Shown in pieces: positions 4,295 to 25,243 of a DNA stretch of 25,243 nt. The position numbers and the translations under genes were made by a program. The DNA is taken from positions 248,001-273,243 of the forward strand of contig NGBS01000297.1 of the NCBI GenBank assembly GCA_002245135.1. Reading direction: 5' to 3'. Every line of letters begins with the position of its first letter. Position 1 is the stretch's first letter. This stretch comes from Proteromonas lacertae (Eukaryota). Under the pieces are notes generated by a model. The model was not told the origin of the DNA. It worked only from the letters and a program-made list of their open reading frames with translations, and did not search any database.

Positions 4295-4411
4295 AAAACA
4301 AAAAATATGAAAAAGAGTCAAACTTGTTTGTTAATCTATTTTGATTTGTTACAGTTATTATTGAATATGTCTCAAGATTGTATAGTTGGATGTGATTCAT
4401 AATAATGAAAG

Positions 4412-4479
4412 AAAGGGGGAAATGAGTACAATTTGAAACCCCTATTTTTTTTGTATTTTTTGTATTGATTTCCCCCTAT
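4412..4479 (+). repeat. Direct repeat copy 1 (~68 bp) with internal 18-bp imperfect inverted arms
   Basis: aaagggggaaatgagtacaatttgaaacccct...ttgtattgatttccccctat recurs at 19396-19462 with one substitution and one T-run indel. Arms 4414-4431 and 4460-4477 are 16/18 complementary. Confidence 0.95.
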
Positions 4480-4526
4480 TGTTTTTTCACCCTTAGAAAC
4501 ATAATTAAACAATAAAAATAATACCA

Positions 4527-4560: not shown

Positions 4561-4631
4561 CCAAAAAAATGGATCCTTTACTCGATCGTGAAATGGATTT
4601 CACGATCGAGTAAAGGACCCATTTTTTTTGG
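4561..4631. repeat. Near-perfect ~34-bp inverted repeat with 2-nt loop
   Basis: ccaaaaaaatggatcctttactcgatcgtgaaat-gg-atttcacgatcgagtaaaggacccattttttttgg. Confidence 0.95.
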
Positions 4632-6031: not shown

Positions 6032-6415
6032 ATGTCTTATTATGGAGGATGGCCAAAAGGGTTTAAAATTAGTAAAGACTGGAATACATATATTCCTAAA
6101 TCAGTTAATAGGAGTAAATGGAGAAAGAGCTATGATTTGTATAGAGACAAAGTAAAGAATGCACTACAAAACAAAACAAAAGTTAAATTACAATATAGAC
6201 AATTAATGAAAATGTATGAACGATTATTAGCTGCTAATCCACCTAAACAAAGAGGAAGACCAAAAGGAAGTAAAGATAGAGCAAAACGTAAACCAAGACG
6301 AGCAGGGCCACGAGCCGCGCCACGAGCCGGGCCAAAGAATGATCCACATCGTATTGTTGTGCATAATGGCAGGCATTATCAGTATGGTATTCCAGTTCCT
6401 AATATGGATAATTAA
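6032..6415 (+). CDS. Basic AT-hook DNA-binding protein (candidate core/chromatin protein)
   Basis: First ATG at 6032. PPKQRGRPKGSKDR matches the HMGA-type AT-hook (RGRPKGSK) and is followed by PRA repeats. Confidence 0.75.
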   Translation: MSYYGGWPKGFKISKDWNTYIPKSVNRSKWRKSYDLYRDKVKNALQNKTKVKLQYRQLMKMYERLLAANPPKQRGRPKGSKDRAKRKPRRAGPRAAPRAGPKNDPHRIVVHNGRHYQYGIPVPNMDN

Positions 6416-6491: not shown

Positions 6492-6580
6492 GGCCACTTG
6501 ACAACTTGAATTGTAATATAAGTTACAACTGGGGCCACTTGACAACTTGAATTGTAATATAAGTTACAACTTGGGCCAGT
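6492..6580. repeat. 41-bp-period tandem repeat (2 copies plus the degenerate start of a third)
   Basis: ggccacttgacaacttgaattgtaatataagttacaact at 6492 and 6533; ggcca again at 6574. Confidence 0.93.
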
Positions 6581-8627: not shown

Positions 8628-10085
8628 ATGGCTTTATCTATTCCAAAAGAACAGAAACATGGTGTAGATGTCCCTGTGATGCTACCCTTCTATAATTATG
8701 TGAGATTGTCTCCGATGGGATCAACATCAGAATACAAGTTGGATACAAATACTTATTCAGAAGAGATTAGATGGGAGATAAGTGGAGATAATATTATCAA
8801 TTTAGCTAAGTCATATATCCAATTCGATATCGAAGTAAAATTAAATCCTTATGATGATGGTACCTATGCAAGCGATGGTAGTACTGGTAATTTAGTCGGT
8901 AAAGGTTTATATCCGAGTATGATAAAAGGAATTAAAGAAGGGTTTGGCTTGGCCTCTTTTAGAATTTGTAATCAGACCGGAACAGATCTGGTCAAGCTTG
9001 ATGATTCGTATGAACCATATCGTGTATTTATGGACGAATTAGTTAGAAAGAGATCTGATATATTCTATCAAGACAATTACTATGATGGAATACAATTAGA
9101 TTGGGATGATGATAATCATAATTATAAAGTTCAAGATATCAATAAGTGGAAAGTAGAACCTAGTACACAATATGTTGAATTAAAAGCTAGTACTAGTGCA
9201 TCTACAGCAACAGCATATGCAGTTCAGTATAAAGATTCAGTTATATTACATTTCAAATTACAATTAGGTAAATTTTACAATACATTTGCTGCATTAAAGA
9301 GCGATGTATTCTTTGGAGAGAGAATGTATATATGCATTCGTTTTCAAACCACAAGTAATTATGGTTTATTAAAAGCATATACACCAGATGAATATGCAAG
9401 AATGAAAAATGATAAAACAAAAGATAATGTAAACTATACAGTATCACATGCAGAAGTTGATATAAATGAAGCAATATTCAAGAATTTCAAATTCTATGCT
9501 TATATCAACAAGGATACTCAATGCAACAACAATACCAAACAATACTGCTTATCAAAACCTATTCAATTCAATGATTTTAGATGTCATCAAATTAAAATAC
9601 CATCAGGTGGATCTGGCATATTCAATTATTCATTCACATTGAATAGTTCCAATGGACCATTTGTTCGTTACATAATCTATAGGCCATGGATAGAATCATT
9701 AAAAAGATATGCACATGTACCTGAAAATGCACAATTCAGATGGATGATCAATGATTTTGTATATCAGCCAGATTATACACTTATGCAATATTATGATAGC
9801 TATATGACTGTCCGTGAATATTTCCAAGACTCATGGTATGATATATTCAGAAAAGATGAAAAATTCAATGACAAGTTCTTTGAGATATTGAATTTTGGCT
9901 CTAAGGATTTGGACAATATTAAGAACCAGGCAGGTAGACCTTTGGCTACTGATTTGAAAATAACCTTTGAATTTTCAACACCTGGTACAAATGACTTTAC
10001 TAATAATGATATCACTCATCGTTTCTATATCATCACTGGACGTATGGTCACTATTAATGGAAGTGGTATTGTAAGTGTAGTTTAA
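8628..10085 (+). CDS. Major capsid protein (double jelly roll)
   Basis: 485 aa from the first ATG. YVRLSP...EEIRWEISGDNIINLAKSYIQFDIEV resembles the Polinton/PLV MCP N-terminus; beta-rich; C-terminal MVTINGSGIVSVV; lies between penton and ATPase. Confidence 0.85.
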   Translation: MALSIPKEQKHGVDVPVMLPFYNYVRLSPMGSTSEYKLDTNTYSEEIRWEISGDNIINLAKSYIQFDIEVKLNPYDDGTYASDGSTGNLVGKGLYPSMIKGIKEGFGLASFRICNQTGTDLVKLDDSYEPYRVFMDELVRKRSDIFYQDNYYDGIQLDWDDDNHNYKVQDINKWKVEPSTQYVELKASTSASTATAYAVQYKDSVILHFKLQLGKFYNTFAALKSDVFFGERMYICIRFQTTSNYGLLKAYTPDEYARMKNDKTKDNVNYTVSHAEVDINEAIFKNFKFYAYINKDTQCNNNTKQYCLSKPIQFNDFRCHQIKIPSGGSGIFNYSFTLNSSNGPFVRYIIYRPWIESLKRYAHVPENAQFRWMINDFVYQPDYTLMQYYDSYMTVREYFQDSWYDIFRKDEKFNDKFFEILNFGSKDLDNIKNQAGRPLATDLKITFEFSTPGTNDFTNNDITHRFYIITGRMVTINGSGIVSVV

Positions 10086-10093
10086 AAATAATC

Positions 10094-10117
10094 ATAATAT
10101 CGATAACGGCTATATTT
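10094..10117 (+). promoter_or_regulatory. Putative promoter motif upstream of the ATPase (copy at 17632-17655)
   Basis: ataatatcgataacggctatattt vs ataatatcaataacggctatattt (23/24). Confidence 0.6.
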
Positions 10118-10146: not shown

Positions 10147-11004
10147 ATGAGTAAAGTTAATTTAGAAAAAATAAACAACATAGTCATAAATCCTGTTGAG
10201 ACAGTAGTCAAAGGATGTGGAAAACGCTCCAAAGATAGTGTCCTTGGATATGACTATTTCCAGGAGCCATTCTGCAACATATTTATTTTAGCTAAGAAAA
10301 ACAGTGGTAAGACTACACTTATATTTAATATGATCCAACACTTGCTAAAAAAGGGATATGACCAAGTAGTGTATTTTTTCGTTGCAACTATATCCAAGGA
10401 TATCATATATGAGAAAATCACTGATATGCTCAAGTATAACCAAATTGAGTACCATTGCTATGATTCAGTAGTGAATGAAGATAGAGTGAATATATTGGAT
10501 GCAGTATTAGATAATATCAAAGATATAGACAAAGATAATTATGATTACCCAGAGAATATATTTATATTCGATGATATATCATTCGATTTAAGAAATAAAT
10601 CCGTTTCTAAATTACTTAAGTCAAACCGTCATTACAAGTCAAAAGTAATTATATCAAGTCAATATGTCACTGACATTACTCCCTCTGTTCGTTTACAGCT
10701 TGATTACTGTTTGGTATTCAAAAACCTGAGTATGGCTAATTTACGAAATCTGTATGCAAGTTTAGATATATGGATCGATTTTGATGTTTTCAAATCATAT
10801 TATGATTATGCAACTAAACAGAGTAATCACTCATTTTTATATATCGATTTATATAATCATGAATTTAGAGTGAATTTTGATAGCAGAATTAGAGATAATA
10901 GTAATAATAGCTATAATCACAATAATAAATATGATCACCTCATTTCCTATAGCAGCGATGATGAGTCCACTGATTCATCAAGTTATCCCAGCGATTCGGA
11001 ATAA
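10147..11004 (+). CDS. A32/FtsK-HerA family genome-packaging ATPase
   Basis: Walker A variant AKKNSGKTT, Walker B IFIFDD, NRHY arginine motif, IISSQY, PSVRLQ and HSFLYID. Confidence 0.93.
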   Translation: MSKVNLEKINNIVINPVETVVKGCGKRSKDSVLGYDYFQEPFCNIFILAKKNSGKTTLIFNMIQHLLKKGYDQVVYFFVATISKDIIYEKITDMLKYNQIEYHCYDSVVNEDRVNILDAVLDNIKDIDKDNYDYPENIFIFDDISFDLRNKSVSKLLKSNRHYKSKVIISSQYVTDITPSVRLQLDYCLVFKNLSMANLRNLYASLDIWIDFDVFKSYYDYATKQSNHSFLYIDLYNHEFRVNFDSRIRDNSNNSYNHNNKYDHLISYSSDDESTDSSSYPSDSE

Positions 11005-12062: not shown

Positions 12063-12765
12063 TTAATTCTTCTTGTTTCTCTTGTATTGTTGGTTTTGAT
12101 TATCACTCTCAGTTCTTCTTTTCATCGGAGCAGGTGTTGTTGGTACTGGAATAATATCATAATCTGCAGGTTGTGTATACATATTCTCCAAATCTATGTC
12201 ATCTACATCCTGATTCTCAGCACACTGATCCTCATCATCCTCCTTCTCCTTCTCAAGTTTTTGCTCAAATTTCTTGATACTACTATGCACCTTCAAATTT
12301 TGGGATAATAGTGTATTTTTCTTTATCCTTCTTATCTAATACAGTTATCTGTCTAATTCTCAAATCACACTGACACTCATAAAATAAATAACTTGGAGGA
12401 TCTTTAATCTTGTTTAACCATGCCCAGAATCTGACAGTGTTATTATCGTTGTCTTCAGGAAATATCACTTGGAAGCCACATTTCTTATAGTCTTTGACCA
12501 TATTTGAGTCATCTGTATACTTGATGGCATAATCCACAAACATTTTTTTCAAAGGCTCCTTTACATCTTGATAATAATTTTTAATAGGTCTTCTGTTCTT
12601 AAATAAGAACCTTCCTGGAGTAAAACTCATGATATAGTACTTTGCATCTTCAATCTTTTCTGTATTTGGTTCAGCTTCATTACACCATCCTTTTACAGTT
12701 AAATAAGTAACATCTCTATCATCTAATGTTATAAAATTAGATCCATTATTGATATTTGAGCTCAT
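12063..12765 (-). pseudogene. Frameshifted gene, possibly an ssDNA-binding protein with acidic tail
   Basis: ORFs 12283-12765 and 12063-12296 join by a 1-nt shift near 12295-12301 (..YTIIPK/LKVHSSIKKFEQ..). The beta-rich core plus acidic C-terminus is only suggestive of an SSB. Confidence 0.45.
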
Positions 12766-14933: not shown

Positions 14934-15463
14934 ATGGTTAAAAGAAGTTCAAAAGTGAAATATCGTAAGTATATCATAGGTAAAGGCAAGTTCTGGGATG
15001 GAGTAAAGAATTTCTTTAAGAAAACAAAAATTTTATCAACAGCAGCTAGTTTAATCCCAGGTGTAGGTCCAGCCTTAGGTAATGTTGTATCCAATGTAGG
15101 ATATGGTAGAAAACGTAGAAGAAGAGGTGGACAAGCAGAATGGAATTATGATGGTGGTATAAGTGGTGCTGGTTCTTTTGGAATAAAGTTAAGAATGCAA
15201 AGATACCAAAGGAATTAAAAAATGTAATTAGTGGTGGTCCAGGCAGTATGCCCTATTTAAAAAATGGTGGAATGGCTAATCCATTTGCTGTAAAGATGTT
15301 AGGTGGTCCAAGCACTATTCCAAAAAAGAATTGGACGAAAGGTGGTCCAAGTACTATACCGAAATTTTTGTTAGCAAAGAAAAAGACTGGTTCTGGTAAA
15401 AGACGTAAAAGTAGTAATAGTCTCGATAATCGATATATTGACAATAAGATTAGAGTTTTCTAG
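14934..15463 (+). CDS. Arg/Gly-rich core / protein VI-like precursor, frameshifted at 15176-15179
   Basis: GKGKFWDGVKNFFKK. Adding one T to the T4 run yields a second motif GAGSFWNKVKNAK and fuses to ORF 15248-15463 (GGPSTIPK x2). Confidence 0.7.
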
Positions 15464-15522
15464 TCTAATTTTATTTTTTTCTATTTTAATCGTATTTCTT
15501 TATTTTCATTCGAAATAACATA

Positions 15523-15816
15523 ATGCCAAAAGGTGGTAGAAGACGTAGATGCGTTTATGGAAGAAGGGGTGGTTCATTTTGGGGTAAGTTAAAAAATTGG
15601 GGTTCCAAAGCATTTAACTGGGCAAAGGATCATAAAATAGCATCCAAAATAGCTAGGGAATTTGGAAAGAACGATATCGCAGATGGATTATCAACAATGG
15701 GATTTGGTCGTAGAAGACGTAGGTCAGGAAGAGGTAGATTACCATTCAATGGAGGTGGGAGTAATCAACAAGCATTATTGAATGCATATTTAAAATCAAA
15801 GGTGGCTCGAATGTAA
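15523..15816 (+). CDS. Arg/Gly-rich protein VI-like (membrane-lytic/core) protein
   Basis: RRGGSFWGKLKNWGSKAFNWAK amphipathic helix; G(F/Y)GRRRRR motif shared with the upstream gene. Confidence 0.75.
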   Translation: MPKGGRRRRCVYGRRGGSFWGKLKNWGSKAFNWAKDHKIASKIAREFGKNDIADGLSTMGFGRRRRRSGRGRLPFNGGGSNQQALLNAYLKSKVARM

Positions 15817-15911: not shown

Positions 15912-16526
15912 ATGAGTGATACTGAATCAACTGAATACGTGAGTGATGATAGTTCTACTGATGAGTCTGATAGTGAAGTAGAGTCAATAAATGAAAATGA
16001 TTCCAAGATGTCCAAACCAAAAATCGCAGAAGCTGAACCAAGTGATGCTATGATCAATGAATTACTATCACAATTCTCTCCAAAGGATATATACAACATA
16101 TTACAGAATGATGGATCATCATCTCATAAAAATTCAATAAAAGGTAAAAAATACTCCCATAAATCCAGATCAAGATCAAGATCACATGAGAGATCCAAAA
16201 GAAGATCTAGCAAGAAACAAAAATCAAATGCTTTAGACGAGCCAAAGTCCAAACGTGGTGGTGGTAGAAAAAATAGTAAAAAGGATAGGGACTCATCATT
16301 ACCTCCTCCTAGTCGTATGACAAAAGCTGAATTACAAATAGCTTTGAAAGAAACCAGAGATCAATTAGGCAAATATATGAAGAAATTAGAAAAGAGTTCA
16401 AATCCAAAGAAAGAGAAAATAGAGAAAGTAAAAGAACCAGAACCAGAAGAAGATAAACCATTAGGTAATGATATTGCAGGTAGAGAAATACAAGGCGAGC
16501 CTATCGAGCCTGTTTATGTTCAATAA
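15912..16526 (+). CDS. Charged low-complexity protein (acidic N-terminus, RS/K-rich middle, coiled coil)
   Basis: First ATG at 15912 (MSDTES); SRSRSRS tract. Confidence 0.75.
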   Translation: MSDTESTEYVSDDSSTDESDSEVESINENDSKMSKPKIAEAEPSDAMINELLSQFSPKDIYNILQNDGSSSHKNSIKGKKYSHKSRSRSRSHERSKRRSSKKQKSNALDEPKSKRGGGRKNSKKDRDSSLPPPSRMTKAELQIALKETRDQLGKYMKKLEKSSNPKKEKIEKVKEPEPEEDKPLGNDIAGREIQGEPIEPVYVQ

Positions 16527-16597: not shown

Positions 16598-17620
16598 ATG
16601 AAAAAACTAAATAAGAAAATACTGCTTGCTGTGTTTGCTCGGATGAGAGGCAAAGGCAAAAGAAAGAAGATACGGAGAGGTGAAGGATATAAAGGACATG
16701 ACAAATATTATCAGAGTTTATATAATAATTTTTATAGAGAAAATGCGAAAGATTTAGTGGATATAAGAAACAGTCGTTTAAATGAAATAAAAGATGAGAT
16801 TACTAAGTTAAATTCTAAAGACACTCCTCCTAATGAAGGTGATATTCGTAAATTGAATGATGAGCAAAAATTTTTAGAGAGACAGAATGCAATCGATTCT
16901 ATGTTATCTACATCATTACATGAAGGTAATGCAATGGCTATACCACTTGCTAATAGTTTAAGAGAGATTGATGATCAGCATTTGTTTGGTCCTAACATGT
17001 ATGTGAATATGAATAGACCTAATTACAATGAAATGGCTCAAGCAAGTGCAAAGACTAGGATGCAGATGGGTGAGTATATGAGTAATCCAATTAACCAAAT
17101 CAAGATGTCACAAATGCAACAAATGGTATATATGCTATATGTTTTGATTTATATATAATAGTAGAAGTTGAATAAATTGATTACTCCTAAAGCAGAAACA
17201 GATATTAAAGTACAGCCGTCTACTGGTAATACAGATGATGTTAAAGAACAGACTGATCATGATCCTGTTGATGATATTACTATTGACGATGTTAAAAAAT
17301 TTACTAAAGAACAAATGGATGAAATATTTGATGAATATGACTTTACAGAAGCTCAGAAAACTAAAATAAAAGAATTATGGGAAGAAGCTCAAAATATTAA
17401 ACAATATGAAGAATGGGTTGCAAATGGAAAAACAGATGATGATGATGATGAAAATGAAGATATTGAATTCAATAAACCAAAAGAAGAAGAAGAAGAAGAT
17501 GATGATGAATTTAAATCTGATTTTGAAGAAGAAGAAGAACAAGAAGATGAGAATGAGGATAATGTTAAAAAAATTGATAGACAGTTAAACAGAATTTTTG
17601 ATGAACTGGGTATTCATTAA
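16598..17620 (+). CDS. Spliced viral gene (intron 17126-17164): basic N-terminus with GxG motifs, acidic C-terminus
   Basis: ORFs 16598-17158 and 17168-17620 share a frame. Removing the 39-nt GTATAT..TAG segment deletes the stops and gives QMQQM/KLNKLITPK. Confidence 0.75.
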
Positions 17621-17700: not shown

Positions 17701-19032
17701 ATGGGTGTTAAACGAAAGCATAAGCAACAATCATCACCAAAAGAAGAAGCAATTGATTTTGAGAATCCTTCTGTGTATCATAATGCACTTAAGAGAAAAT
17801 TGAAAAAGATCATCTACAACAAAGTGAAAGATAACAAAAAAATAAAACTAGATCTTAGTCACATGGCTAACCCAACAGTCAATGTTGACAAAGGCAATGG
17901 TACATATGGATTAGGCATCTATGATCCTAAATCTAATTTCAATAAATTTTATGATACTATAGGAGATGATGATGATATAGAGGAATTATCAAAGCCTGTT
18001 AATCCAAATATAAACGCAACAAAAAACAATTTCATGACTGATGAGATGAAATACAAATTATATATGTCAGGCATCACAGATCAGTTTGGACGATATTATA
18101 GGAACATAGGTAAGTATAACAAACCATACTCAGATTATTATGCTCAACCAGAGAATTTAACATATCAATGGCAAAATCCATTTTTATCTCAAATTGAAGG
18201 ACAGCCATTACAACAATGGGGATCACAGTACAATGTAAATTCATATCAATCCAATCCAAGATGGAATAATAATGCTGGTACAACACAAAAAGATCACGAG
18301 TATGAATTACAACAAGAAAATGAAATAATGAAAGCAAGGAATGAAGAATATCAGAGAAAGATAGCAACAATGGAAGAAAGAGAAAAAGAGTCATTAATTG
18401 CAAAAATTGATAAATATTTCTCAGGTAATACAACATACGATTGGTTGAAATTTGGTGTGAAGTTCTGCTTATGTACTATGACATTAGGTTCTATTTCACA
18501 AGTGTTTGATATACTATTTCCTGATAGTACTGTTGGTGCAATATTAAAGTATTTAGTAAATGCAGGAATAGGATATAGTGGTGTTATGCAATGGATATTT
18601 GGTTTATCTCCAGCATGGGTTAATGCAGCATCTTTTCTGTCAATGTTAACTCCTAATTTTGTCAGTTTGGTATATAATCGTTGGAAACAAGTTCCTCCAA
18701 TGGATATGTCACAATGGATTCATTCTAAGTTAGATAGTATAATGGGTTTCTTTACTACATCACTAAGTAATATATACAATTGGTTCAGAGGTATATTTGG
18801 TGCTACTCCTACAACAACAACAAATTCGACGAGTGCGCCGGCCACTTCAAATATTCAAGCATCGAATGTTACAACTGCTCCCAGTTATAATAATACAACT
18901 AATAGTACTACAATTGCCCCCAGTTATAATAATCAAAGTTCAAATGCTGCAAGTTACGCCACGGCGGCAGCAGCCCAGCCAGCATTCCAAAATAACTATA
19001 ACAATATGTTATACCATGATAGAAATATATAA
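17701..19032 (+). CDS. Large hypothetical protein with coiled coil, hydrophobic/amphipathic helices and T/S/N-rich tail
   Basis: 443 aa from the first ATG; hydrophobic block FGVKFCLCTMTLGSISQVFDILF..AASFLSMLTPNFVSLVY. Confidence 0.8.
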   Translation: MGVKRKHKQQSSPKEEAIDFENPSVYHNALKRKLKKIIYNKVKDNKKIKLDLSHMANPTVNVDKGNGTYGLGIYDPKSNFNKFYDTIGDDDDIEELSKPVNPNINATKNNFMTDEMKYKLYMSGITDQFGRYYRNIGKYNKPYSDYYAQPENLTYQWQNPFLSQIEGQPLQQWGSQYNVNSYQSNPRWNNNAGTTQKDHEYELQQENEIMKARNEEYQRKIATMEEREKESLIAKIDKYFSGNTTYDWLKFGVKFCLCTMTLGSISQVFDILFPDSTVGAILKYLVNAGIGYSGVMQWIFGLSPAWVNAASFLSMLTPNFVSLVYNRWKQVPPMDMSQWIHSKLDSIMGFFTTSLSNIYNWFRGIFGATPTTTTNSTSAPATSNIQASNVTTAPSYNNTTNSTTIAPSYNNQSSNAASYATAAAAQPAFQNNYNNMLYHDRNI

Positions 19033-19395
19033 TCTTATGATAGTTTATAGTGTATTGGAAATAGAAAAAACGAATTAAAAAAAAGAAGGCTTGAAGGCTC
19101 GAAATTGTTTTTAACAAAAAATAAACTGTTTTTTGAGAGCAATCCAGTCCAAGATTAAAGGCTTGAAATATATATTACAAAGCTTGTAGAATATTCTGCA
19201 AAGCACTGTAAATCTTAAAAAATAAAGATTAACTTAGTCAAACCATCAAGCTTGATGTTTTTTTCTTTTGATTTTTTTATTCTATAATTAATTTAATACT
19301 ATGTTAATTATATGTTATTGTGAGTCATCATTGTGAGTGCATCGACTGATAGTCAAATTTGATATTTGAAAGATGATGTATAATAATAATGAATA

Positions 19396-19462
19396 AAAGG
19401 GGGAAATGAGTACAATTTGAAACCCCTGTTTTTTTGTATTTTTTGTATTGATTTCCCCCTAT
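19396..19462 (+). repeat. Direct repeat copy 2 of 4412-4479
   Basis: Near-identical sequence in the same orientation, 14984 bp downstream. Confidence 0.95.
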
Positions 19463-19657
19463 GTGTTTTTTGTCCGTTTCATAATCAAATCATAATTCAA
19501 GCTTACATTATTTTTCGCTTTTCTGTTTGAATTTAAACAAAAATAATTATTCCATTTGAATCCTCATCTTATGATGAATCTATTTATGTTGTTAGTTCAA
19601 ATTATAGAAAGTGAATGACATATAATTTCAAAAAATAATTCAATAAAAACAATCTCA

Positions 19658-19709
19658 ATAGGATGGTCAACACATGGTGTGATATGACACCATATAGTGA
19701 CCATCCTAT
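19658..19709. repeat. Imperfect hairpin
   Basis: ataggatggtca..atggtgt-gatatg-acaccat..tgaccatcctat (12-bp and 7-bp stems). Confidence 0.85.
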
Positions 19710-21342: not shown

Positions 21343-21465
21343 TTCATAATCGATTTTCCTTTCCCTTTCTTTTTTTCACTTATTTACCTAGAGAAAAGTG
21401 ATCGACTTCACTTTCCCTAAGTAAGGAAGTGAAAAAAAGAAAGGGTAAGAAGAATCGGTTATGGA
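21343..21465. repeat. ~120-bp imperfect hairpin
   Basis: Perfect 19-bp arms ccctttctttttttcactt / aagtgaaaaaaagaaaggg plus inner and outer partial stems. Confidence 0.85.
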
Positions 21466-22193: not shown

Positions 22194-25100
22194 ATGTATC
22201 CCAGCTATCCTCCTTGGTTTAATCCGTGGTATTACCAGTCTCCAAGTACTTCTATGCCTATTCAAGGCAATAGTCAAGCAAATCAGATTCCAATGTTGCC
22301 ACAAAGTTATTTTAATCCCTGGATGAACCCTTATTTTACTCCAGCTATCCCACCACCACCATCCTATTACTATCCTCCACCATATTATGTAGGATCATTA
22401 AATCAACATCCACAACAACCTCAGCAGCAGCAGCAACAACAACAACAACAACAACAATCAAACACTACTAGAAGTACTAATGGAACTAGTTTCATAACAC
22501 CAAGAAGAAGAACAACATCTTCAATTGTAATTGATTAACCACCTCCTCCACCTCCAAAAATACAGCGATTAGCAGAAATCCCAGATGATTTATTACCAGA
22601 TACACCTCCTCCTGAAGATCCACCAACACTTTCACCAATTAATGATGGACCAATTCCTGAAATACATCCTCAATCAACTACAGATGTTGAAAGAAGAAGG
22701 CAGCTACAGGAAGAAATGATTGCTCTGGATGTTGTTGATAATCATCCAGAGCAGCTGAAAACAATGTCACATCCTGAAAGAGTAAGTTTGTTACAACTTG
22801 TAGAGAGAAGTAGTAGAGACTACGAACGTACCTACGAGAAGATTATAAATGAAGAAGATGGAAAGAAACCTGAGGATTTGTTTACCCAAATCTGCAATGC
22901 ATCAAGTGATTTTATGGTTACCATACGTAACTACATAAATGAGAAGAAATTTTCTTATATAAAAGTTTATTTCAGATTCAGAGTAGGTTATATAGGATCC
23001 GATGAACCAGCCAATGCACAAGTAAGTTGTTACAAAACATTCGAAACAGCGCCAGAAATTATAACTTCTCAAGAGTTAGGTACAATTGGTTCAAAGTTAA
23101 ACAATGCCATGATTCGAGATTTAGGTTCAATTTTCAACACTGAAAGATCTGAACTAAAGTTCAGATATATTAAGAAGGTAGAGATGATACTGATGAAAAG
23201 TTCAATGGCTGCTGGATCCTCTACAGAAGATGACAACATAAAGTTACCAGCAAGTCTCAACAATAGAAAGTGCGTTATTAATTTAGTAAGATATAGTGAA
23301 GAATGTAAGAATATGTGCTTTTTATTTAGTGTGGCAGCTGGTTTACACTATATAGAGTTCAAAGACCACCGTAACAGAGCAATGAAATATAAACAGTATG
23401 TAGACTTAATGGATGTAAGTAGTTTAAGGTTTCCAGTAGATGCAATTAATGATAGTGACAGAATTGATGAGTTTGAACAGCTGAATCATATTACTATCAA
23501 TATATTTACAATAGACCAGAATGAACCAATACCTTTATACGTTACCAACATAGATAAAAGAAAACACTGGCCTCATGTGAACCTATTGATATATAAAGAT
23601 CATTATATGGTAATAACAAAGTTAGAAGCCTTCCTATCACCTTCTGGTAAAAGGTGTCATAATTATTATACCAGATGCCAGTATTGTTTCTGTACTTTAT
23701 CAACAGCTGATATGATAATTCAACATCAGAAAGAGAATTGTCAATTACAAAAGGAATCATTCGTCAATTTCCACCTCCAGATACCTTCATCAAGTTTCAT
23801 AATTTCAAATACCAACAAATGATTCCTGTAGTATTATACTGGGATACAGAAGTTATACAAGTACCAATAGATCCTTCTGAAGTAATACCTGGAGCCAAAG
23901 GAGCGTTTAAAAAACATATTCTCAGCAGTTGGTGCATTCACTTAAGTTCCAGGTACCCTGAAATCATCAGCGAAGAAACATTCTTCGGAAAACTGGAATT
24001 GCAGCAAGATCCACAAGATTTGGAGATGCAACTAGTAAAGAAGTTTGTTGAGATTCAAGATTATGTATTGAAGAAGTATGAAGATTATAAAAGTGGTGAA
24101 TTGAAACCATTAGATGAAAGCACTTATATTCCAGCTCATAAAAATATCGATAAATGTATGTGGTGCAATACACCCTTCAATGAAAACGACAGAAATAGAA
24201 GGCGAACAAGACACCATGACCATTTTACTGGCAAGTATATTGCAACCTTATGTTCAAACTGTAATTGGCATTGTAGTTTACAACATATGCCTATACCATG
24301 TTTGGCACACAACAGTAAAAACTATGACAATAACTTTATAATACGCGGATTATCAAAGTTGGATAAAGAAATGGAAGCAAAATGGTACAATGATAATAAT
24401 ATTCCTATTCCAAATGATGATGATGATGATGATGAAGATAATGAAATTATACAATTACCAATACCTGAACCTGAACCTGAACCAATTGCTGATAGATTAG
24501 CTGAATACAATAGAGGTATTGAAGAAGAAAAGAAACAAGAACAAGAAGCAAAAACAGTTGATGATGAAGAAGATGCAGAAACAGAAGAAGATACTGATTC
24601 TGATTTGCCATTACCAGAAATACCACCAAATGCAATTGAAATAGTTGATGAGAATGATCCAGCAAATGAAGAAGCATTTAATGAGTTGTATTACATGTTA
24701 CATAGTAGAGATCATTACATATCACCAAGAACAGCAGAAGATATTGGATTAGAAGAAGAGATGGGAAATATTATTGTTTCACAACCTAATTCAACAACAA
24801 CTGAACAACAACAACAACAACAACCAACACCAAGAAAGAAGAAATATCATTCAAAACTATCTGTATTGTTAAAAACTGATAATAAGTTTTTACTTATCAA
24901 GTTCATGAAGTTACACTTTATAGATAGTTGTCAATTTATGCCAGCATCATTAGATTCATTAGTAAAATCATTGAAAGTCGAAACTGATGCACATGCTAAT
25001 CATAAAGTACTCTTTAAACCAGTTTATCAATATGTAACACAAACAAAAGAGATAAATGATTGTTTAAAAGAGAGAAACTGGACAGTGGATGATTTTATAG

Positions 25101-25243
25101 CTAAGTGGGGTTTACAGAAAGGTCATTTCCCCTACGAATACGTAGATAGTATTCAAAAGTTATACCTTACTGATTAATTACCTAGAAAAGAAGATTTTAA
25201 GTCTCAATTAAAACAGAATGAAGGTATTTCTGATTATAACTAT
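22194..25243 (+). pseudogene. polB: Protein-primed family B DNA polymerase (Polinton-type), 5' part, interrupted
   Basis: Motifs KLPASLNNRKCVIN..CFLFSV, FPV, EFEQLNHITINIF, HVNLL..HYMVI, PVVLYWDTE (ExoI), HHDHFTGKY..CSNCN (EndoVII-like), AHNSKNYD (ExoII), FIDSCQFMPASLDSLV and KGHFPYEY. In-frame TAA at 22536 and 25175; -1 shift near 23749-23752. Confidence 0.92.

Follow-up and report, generated by a model that had tools for sequence, protein, structure and literature searches.

Two small arginine-rich genes in a likely integrated Polinton-like virus are homologous to the virophage capsid tail and may encode a protease-released entry peptide

The window analysed here is a stretch of 25,243 nucleotides composed of two unlike parts. 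The left 4.3 kb has a GC content of 20–25%, carries an Hsp70-like gene in pieces and contains candidate GT..AG introns of 26–40 nt, a size that recalls the short introns of Blastocystis; the composition, the Hsp70-like gene and the short introns together point to a single-celled eukaryote. From approximately 4.4 kb rightward the DNA is gene-dense, has a GC content of about 30%, and is likely an integrated, decaying Polinton-like virus. The features considered below are listed by position, with an arrow marking the predicted point of cleavage.

8628 to 10085, plus strand: likely double jelly-roll (DJR) major capsid protein (MCP) of Polinton-like type, 485 aa, with no C-terminal module
10147 to 11004, plus strand: packaging ATPase, homologous to the ATPases found beside the free module gene in relatives
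14934 to 15463, plus strand: gene 1, a small basic precursor, in two partial ORFs with a frame change within 15152–15218
14985 to 15104, plus strand: module copy 1 of 40 aa, bounded by the predicted cuts IIGK↓G and NVGY↓G and headed by an amphipathic helix (motif 1)
15105 to 15131, plus strand: Arg/Lys tract ending in GG, seen in the sequence and kept in homologues, a predicted DNA-binding fragment
15159 to 15202, plus strand: "motif 2", straddling the frame break, a Gly site with a brief W-x-x-V-K stub
15416 to 15463, plus strand: C-terminal peptide of gene 1, DNRYIDNKIRV, near-invariant in 11/11 close homologues, a candidate cofactor or capsid-binding end
15523 to 15816, plus strand: gene 2, an intact basic precursor of 97 aa with a net charge of +21
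15574 to 15705, plus strand: module copy 2 of 44 aa, bounded by the predicted cuts RRGG↓S and TMGF↓G and headed by an amphipathic helix (motif 3)
15706 to 15813, plus strand: Arg tract of gene 2, with another GG site and the conserved peptide QQALLNAYLK at the C-terminus
22716 to 25243, plus strand: polymerase-B-like gene, shifted in frame near 23.8 kb, interrupted by an in-frame stop at 25175–25177 and leaving the window

The element was compared with the hallmarks of Polinton-like and MELD viruses, namely a DJR capsid, a penton, an A32-like ATPase and a replicase within an integrated element of 15–40 kb; in the window the ATPase is clear and the capsid is recognized at weak scores. In the ESM Atlas the 485-aa capsid was placed at 0.97 with clusters carrying the Capsid_N and Sputnik MCP families, at a recognition score of 1719 that lies below the tool's mark of 2300, and it aligned with the capsid of the relative L005 at 22% identity (E 3e-4). 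It was matched neither by a virophage MCP HMM, nor by a profile built from the capsids of L005 and L008, nor by the tail and module HMMs, and its single-sequence fold reached a pLDDT of 32. A minor capsid gene is likely also present. The polymerase-B-like gene is a putative assignment from motifs resembling those of a B-family polymerase. It shows a weak match to Endonuclease_7 (E 0.0018) and contains a zinc ribbon of endonuclease VII type as well as a long insertion rich in acidic residues. No library searched gave a match confirming either the penton or the polymerase, and exact look-up of ten other window proteins returned no identical record. A protease, an integrase and terminal inverted repeats were not found within the window, which the element leaves at the right end. 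Classification of the element as a virophage (Maveriviricetes) was considered and rejected, the set of virophage-like hexon, ATPase and protease given in the available text of PMC9952930 not being found in the window.

Several further observations were made along the element. The motif AACGRMTATA, a likely viral promoter element, occurs seven times in the window against 0.2 expected (at 10105, 12785, 14463, 14866, 17643, 20745 and 21067), mostly 20–70 bases from gene starts and with one copy in the gap that separates two divergent genes (14859 and 14934). The gene at 16598–17620, in which a basic tract and an MRGK↓G site stand at the start of the ORF, contains a 39-nt GT..AG stretch (17126–17164, 18% GC) that holds stops between two same-frame ORFs and is likely a spliceosomal intron in a viral gene. 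A direct repeat of 96 nt at 4399–4494, on the border of host and element, and at 19383–19478 may indicate that another element, in tandem or nested, begins at about 19.4 kb; hairpins lie at 4563–4628, 19658–19709 and 21345–21463, and a tandem 41-nt repeat at 6492–6573. Two more basic proteins (15912–16526 and 6032–6415), one RS-rich with a KRGGG site and one with a net charge of +26, are candidate extra core proteins. The 443-aa ORF at 17701–19032, with a coiled coil, a long hydrophobic helical region and no family match, possibly encodes a membrane or tape-measure-like virion protein, and for 12283–12765 PHROG gave a weak hit to phrog_2926 (E 3e-4), a virion structural protein.

Gene 1 is of about 176 aa when its two partial ORFs are joined; because all 11 close homologues (123–165 aa) carry the N- and C-terminal halves in a single ORF, 14934–15463 is regarded as one broken gene, and the copy in the window is likely a pseudogene. 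The frame break could sit at any point in 15152–15218, where short GT..AG stretches that restore the frame are also found, for example 15157–15188 and 15188–15231, whose splicing would delete motif 2. For gene 2, an identical protein is on record in a 1044-base Logan contig, and five homologues were found at 64–74%; its end region (15706–15813) contains invariant alignment columns and is also present in P0045–47, P0050 and P0082. The ESM Atlas placed gene 2 with hypothetical clusters alone (0.88–0.90), and scans of IMG/VR and of metagenomes returned no close relatives of either gene, of the capsid or of the ATPase.

A preliminary description of this region had proposed three amphipathic motifs like that of adenovirus protein VI (pVI), each behind a Gly site, in two genes sharing a G[YF]G-Arg tract. 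The pattern W-x-x-[VIL]-K has 11 matches in the six frames of the whole window, three of which fall in the region of genes 1 and 2, and a Gly site stands ahead of motifs 1 and 3 alone. Motif 1 (GKGKFWDGVKNFFKK, 14979–15023) and motif 3 (RGGSFWGKLKNWGSKAFNWAK, 15565–15627) are both in frame. Helical hydrophobic moments were calculated and ranked against 4326 windows of 19 other ORFs of the element, giving 0.79 over 11 residues for motif 1 (percentile 100.0) and 0.54–0.61 for motif 3 (percentile 97.8–99.2). The value for motif 2 was 0.01–0.26 (percentile 0.2–47), and motif 2 is therefore non-amphipathic, its periodicity being gone after five residues. Motif 2 is also split between frames, with the Gly site in one and the W-containing part in another, and its stretch is an insertion found in this copy and not in the 11 close homologues of gene 1, none of which (0/11) has a second W-x-x-[VIL]-K. 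For these reasons, namely the non-amphipathic, frame-split and inserted nature of motif 2, we count two sound motifs and not three; motif 2 is a degenerate, non-amphipathic partial copy of the module. Motifs 1 and 3 each follow a Gly site and are conserved in homologues.

Other points of the description were borne out by the sequence. A G[YF]G followed by an Arg tract is seen in both, and the proposed duplication of a Gly-site-bounded amphipathic helix joined to Arg tracts corresponds to two modules in paralogous genes, which align over approximately 58 columns (hhalign 89.7%). At the DNA level similarity between the genes is confined to Arg codons, and the duplication is therefore old.

The module itself measures 40–50 residues and is present in about 70 relatives, often in tandem. 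It opens with GG↓X or GX↓G, followed by the amphipathic helix and K-h-h-S; a pair of short helices comes next, and then G[YF]↓G and the Arg tract. A full-library profile search gave 69 representatives (50% identity) at E≤0.001, many with 2–5 copies. A pattern search of 84 relatives, from which P0093 and P0113 had been left out as repeat-driven matches, recovered 100 modules, distributed over 70 proteins. Since the pattern itself includes G[YFL]G, that end does not count as evidence. A GG↓X or GX↓G site lies 11–32 residues upstream of the core in 96/99 modules, versus 47.9±4.3 (maximum 62, n=1000) in shuffled controls, and at least four K/R within eight residues after the module are found in 83/99. 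Helix 1 outscores its own shuffles in 90 of 94 modules. No convincing Pfam family was found among the 69 family proteins scanned; the sole match above a curated cut-off, HTH_8 on the four-copy protein P0053, was set aside as repeat-driven. The family alignment A4 is headed by the homologue P0105 rather than by a protein of the window; its predicted fold has three helices (pLDDT 60), and Foldseek with this fold returned no useful match. PDB searches with the A1 and A3 alignments and with the L001 tail gave nothing meaningful, and the window module had no PDB match at E≤10.

Profile comparison identified a relative outside the family of small genes, the C-terminal tail of the virophage MCP, of which genes 1 and 2 are free-standing, duplicated homologues. 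A profile of free modules (A4, which contains no capsid sequence) matched 97/120 virophage MCP tails at ≥10 bits and 0/600 tail-shuffled controls, the 120 proteins having been picked by similarity to a capsid that carries the module. In the reverse direction, an HMM built from 119 tails only ranked genes 1 and 2 first among the 202 window ORFs, at 25.7 and 18.0 bits; the next ORF scored 5.2, the best of 1000 shuffles 9.4 and 6.0, and the reversed sequences 0.7 and −0.8. The hhalign comparison of the modules with the tails gave 95.5% for module copy 1 and 96.5% for module copy 2, and gene 1 shares 49% identity over 49 aa with the tail of the virophage MCP L049. The full module is found at ≥10 bits in 26/56 non-redundant IMG/VR virophage tails, and it is therefore common among virophage tails, though not universal. 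In the L001 genome, found in the IMG/VR scan and carrying a penton and a protease, the module forms the C-terminus of a virophage capsid protein that is complete. At E≤10 only two PDB chains came back for each of two module profiles, and both times one of them was full-length mavirus MCP (6g45), at E values (0.75 and 0.5) not significant alone.

A full-capsid alignment shows that the module spans mavirus GG↓S to GY↓G, while mature Sputnik MCP stops where the module starts. The tail cuts of mavirus were mapped by mass spectrometry and define the fragment MCPC1 (517–567), in which an amphipathic helix was proposed, and the cuts are conserved in virophage tails (PMC6048507, available text). The two ends of the module align with the mapped cuts that bound MCPC1. 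In eight virophage loci (L068, L076, L078, L082, L083, L084, L087 and L088) the C-terminal part of the capsid was observed as a separate ORF of 167–227 codons, and the capsid match there stretches over as much as 2.4 kb, which suggests that the capsid gene contains introns or insertions.

The gene context of the module differs between the two groups of viruses. Among the 64 virophage loci checked none had a separate module gene within its flanks, and a clan CE protease was found in 67/71 virophage loci. In the 16 metagenome loci fetched by the module, most of them 1–4 kb long, the module is a small free gene; an ATPase homologous to that of the window (26–40% identity) is present in 9/16, usually adjoining the module gene, and the ATPase of L003 matches Pfam Pox_A32. 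Tail-less capsids occur in L005, L008, L090 and the window, where the module gene is free. These comparisons show, at the level of sequence, a module fused to the capsid in virophages and a separate gene in Polinton-like viruses with tail-less capsids, a pattern that speaks for gene fission or fusion between the capsid tail and a core protein. The preliminary description had also asked for an adenain/Ulp1-like protease in sister elements, and such genes are present: L013, which passes Pfam Peptidase_C5, and L016 have a protease beside or near the free module gene (2/16 metagenome loci), and a His..Gln..Cys pattern is found in the proteases of L016, L090 and L001. L090, which was fetched by its ATPase alone, has a tail-less capsid and, directly after its protease gene, a module gene of divergent sequence, and is a single unbiased case of a protease next to a free module gene.

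We consider it fairly probable that the two genes of this likely integrated Polinton-like virus encode a packaged and cleaved DNA-binding core protein that releases a membrane-active entry helix. The Arg tracts would carry the precursors into the particle on DNA, and a clan CE protease would cut them at the Gly sites, freeing an amphipathic peptide of 40–44 residues; at entry the freed helix would break the endosomal membrane, as adenovirus protein VI does. The window is without a protease and the element leaves it at the right end; the enzyme is proposed to be encoded in a portion of the element that lies beyond the window, or to be supplied by another copy. Packaging, cleavage, membrane activity and the supply of protease are steps that we infer.

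A core or scaffold function without lysis, in which the Arg tracts would condense DNA, the helices would tether the genome to the inside of the capsid and cleavage would detach it, is the main rival and seems to us rather unlikely. The net charge of +19 to +21 and the up to 3–5 tandem copies per protein fit a structural or DNA-packing role, and amphipathic helices also suit binding to the capsid interior; pVI itself binds hexon via its amphipathic helix (PMC8310329, available text). Born et al. also proposed genome tethering and assembly roles for the mavirus tail; they could find no fragments of the tail in native virions, and its lytic role is a prediction (PMC6048507, available text). However, the helix starts right at the predicted cut, is cationic and contains Trp in 53/96 copies, and the virophage tails retain it, including those in which acidic residues make up the segment behind G[YF]G. 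The relatives also show a weak Pfam likeness to membrane-active peptides (dermaseptin, scorpion antimicrobial peptide; E 0.003–0.04), which likewise argues for the entry helix over a purely structural one.

We regard true orthology of genes 1 and 2 with adenovirus pVI as improbable. The virophage-tail profile does align with pVI residues 30–53, that is, with the cut site and the lytic helix (residues 34–54; 10.1101/857581, available text), and Starrett et al. label a "VI"-like gene in a protist MELD virus (PMC8502044, available text). However, this best PDB trace has an E value of 3.4 and ranks below designed helical bundles, and MCPVI (PF02993) was matched neither in any Pfam scan nor in a direct search of the L001 virophage record. 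The proteins are 97–180 aa long versus 250 for pVI, PPxY is absent from both genes and from the 84 relatives, and P4 is M, I or L at 13/96 upstream sites. The likeness to pVI extends over about 20 residues and is no better than that to nodavirus gamma peptides. A reading of pVI as the closest relative is thus not upheld, the demonstrable homologue being the virophage MCP tail. The view that the genes are accessory genes for a host-directed or antimicrobial, cupiennin-like peptide acting outside the virion, suggested by the weak antimicrobial-peptide matches in Pfam and by the cupiennin-, PLA2- and gasdermin-like genes of adintoviruses (PMC8502044, available text), appears very improbable given the homology to a capsid tail, the position of the module gene among morphogenesis genes in relatives and the lack of a hydrophobic leader in either gene.

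The entry-helix reading bears on how naked Polinton-like viruses and virophages cross the host membrane, and the homology connects a peptide of the cultured mavirus with a widespread, unannotated family that counts 69 representatives at 50% identity. Since the ends of that peptide have been mapped, the entry hypothesis is testable with synthetic peptides and mavirus mutants. We further suggest, tentatively and as a doubtful proposition, that a single ancient, protease-released penetration peptide belongs to small DJR viruses of eukaryotes in general, capsid-fused in virophages, split off and multiplied as Arg-flanked core genes in one clade of Polinton-like viruses, and surviving as the lytic helix of pVI; if true, the shared peptide would give pVI an origin and name an entry factor of Polinton-like viruses. 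Membrane-active, pX/pVI-like core proteins have already been proposed for Polinton-type viruses (PMC8502044, 10.1101/341131), though the available text of these two sources draws no link to the virophage capsid tail. Neither pVI nor amphipathic helices nor core proteins come up in the available portion of 10.64898/2026.06.19.733378, and the available portions of PMC9952930, 10.1101/2025.02.07.637071, 10.1101/2025.10.09.676808 and 10.1101/2024.03.23.586382 contain nothing on the module. Searches of openly available article text turned up no publication that connects free Polinton-like genes with the virophage tail. Thus pVI-like entry peptides in such viruses have already been proposed in print, while the link to the virophage tail and the distribution of fused and free forms are seemingly new.

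Among known systems, the gamma peptide of Alphanodavirus (1NOV_D, 2BBV_D, 3LOB_D) is similar in being a capsid-derived, cleaved peptide of about 44 residues with a W-x-x-h-K helix followed by IPG. It differs in coming from an RNA virus and in having no Arg tracts, and the window module has no match to it. Nodavirus gamma peptides are membrane-lytic, and in the alphanodaviruses the cut is autocatalytic. One virophage tail (L040:6450-6632), picked after the fact from 35 tails, matched gamma peptide 1nov_D at an E value of 0.003 and the C-terminal end of Peptidase_A6 at 6.6e-4. The likeness of the L040 tail to gamma peptides could reflect convergence or an exchange of capsid tails between DNA and RNA viruses; the overall likeness to the alphanodavirus peptide is likely convergence. 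The Cupiennin, PLA2X and GasderminX proteins of adintoviruses and LO6 of adomaviruses are, like the products of genes 1 and 2, small virion-core candidates with predicted membrane-active helices and adenain-type sites; they are described from animal viruses (PMC8502044, 10.1101/341131, available text).

Adenovirus pVI is characterized by a precursor of approximately 250 aa with a 33-aa N-peptide, a PPxY motif and an 11-aa C-terminal cofactor (PMC8310329, 10.1101/857581, available text). The window genes resemble it in the amphipathic helix placed directly after a Gly site (motifs 1 and 3) in a likely virion precursor and, loosely with respect to pVIc, in a conserved C-terminal peptide after basic residues. 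They are unlike it in lacking a significant sequence match and PPxY, in being far shorter, in their protamine-like Arg tracts and in a module repeated within or between genes. P4 is also looser: the adenain consensus, (M/I/L/N/Q)xGG↓x or xGx↓G (PMC6048507, available text), fits gene 1 and not gene 2, and it fits 27/96 upstream sites in relatives, where P4 is mostly Arg, Gln or Lys. The module thus probably works like pVI yet fails pVI membership, because of the E value of the alignment and the missing PF02993 match.

The closest system remains the C-terminal domain of virophage MCPs (mavirus MCPC1–C4, PDB 6G45; Sputnik V20), which is cut by the virophage clan CE protease (PMC6048507, available text). 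The window module is unlike this domain in that it is encoded apart from the capsid, in a small gene of its own that is duplicated, with Arg tracts on both sides and a conserved C-terminal peptide of its own in each gene; the window capsid is tail-less and not of virophage type, and no protease lies within the window. The two are alike in the placement of the module between GG↓X and G[YF]↓G (predicted cuts in the window genes), in the amphipathic first helix, in the basic tract and further GG site that follow, and in their reciprocal profile matches.
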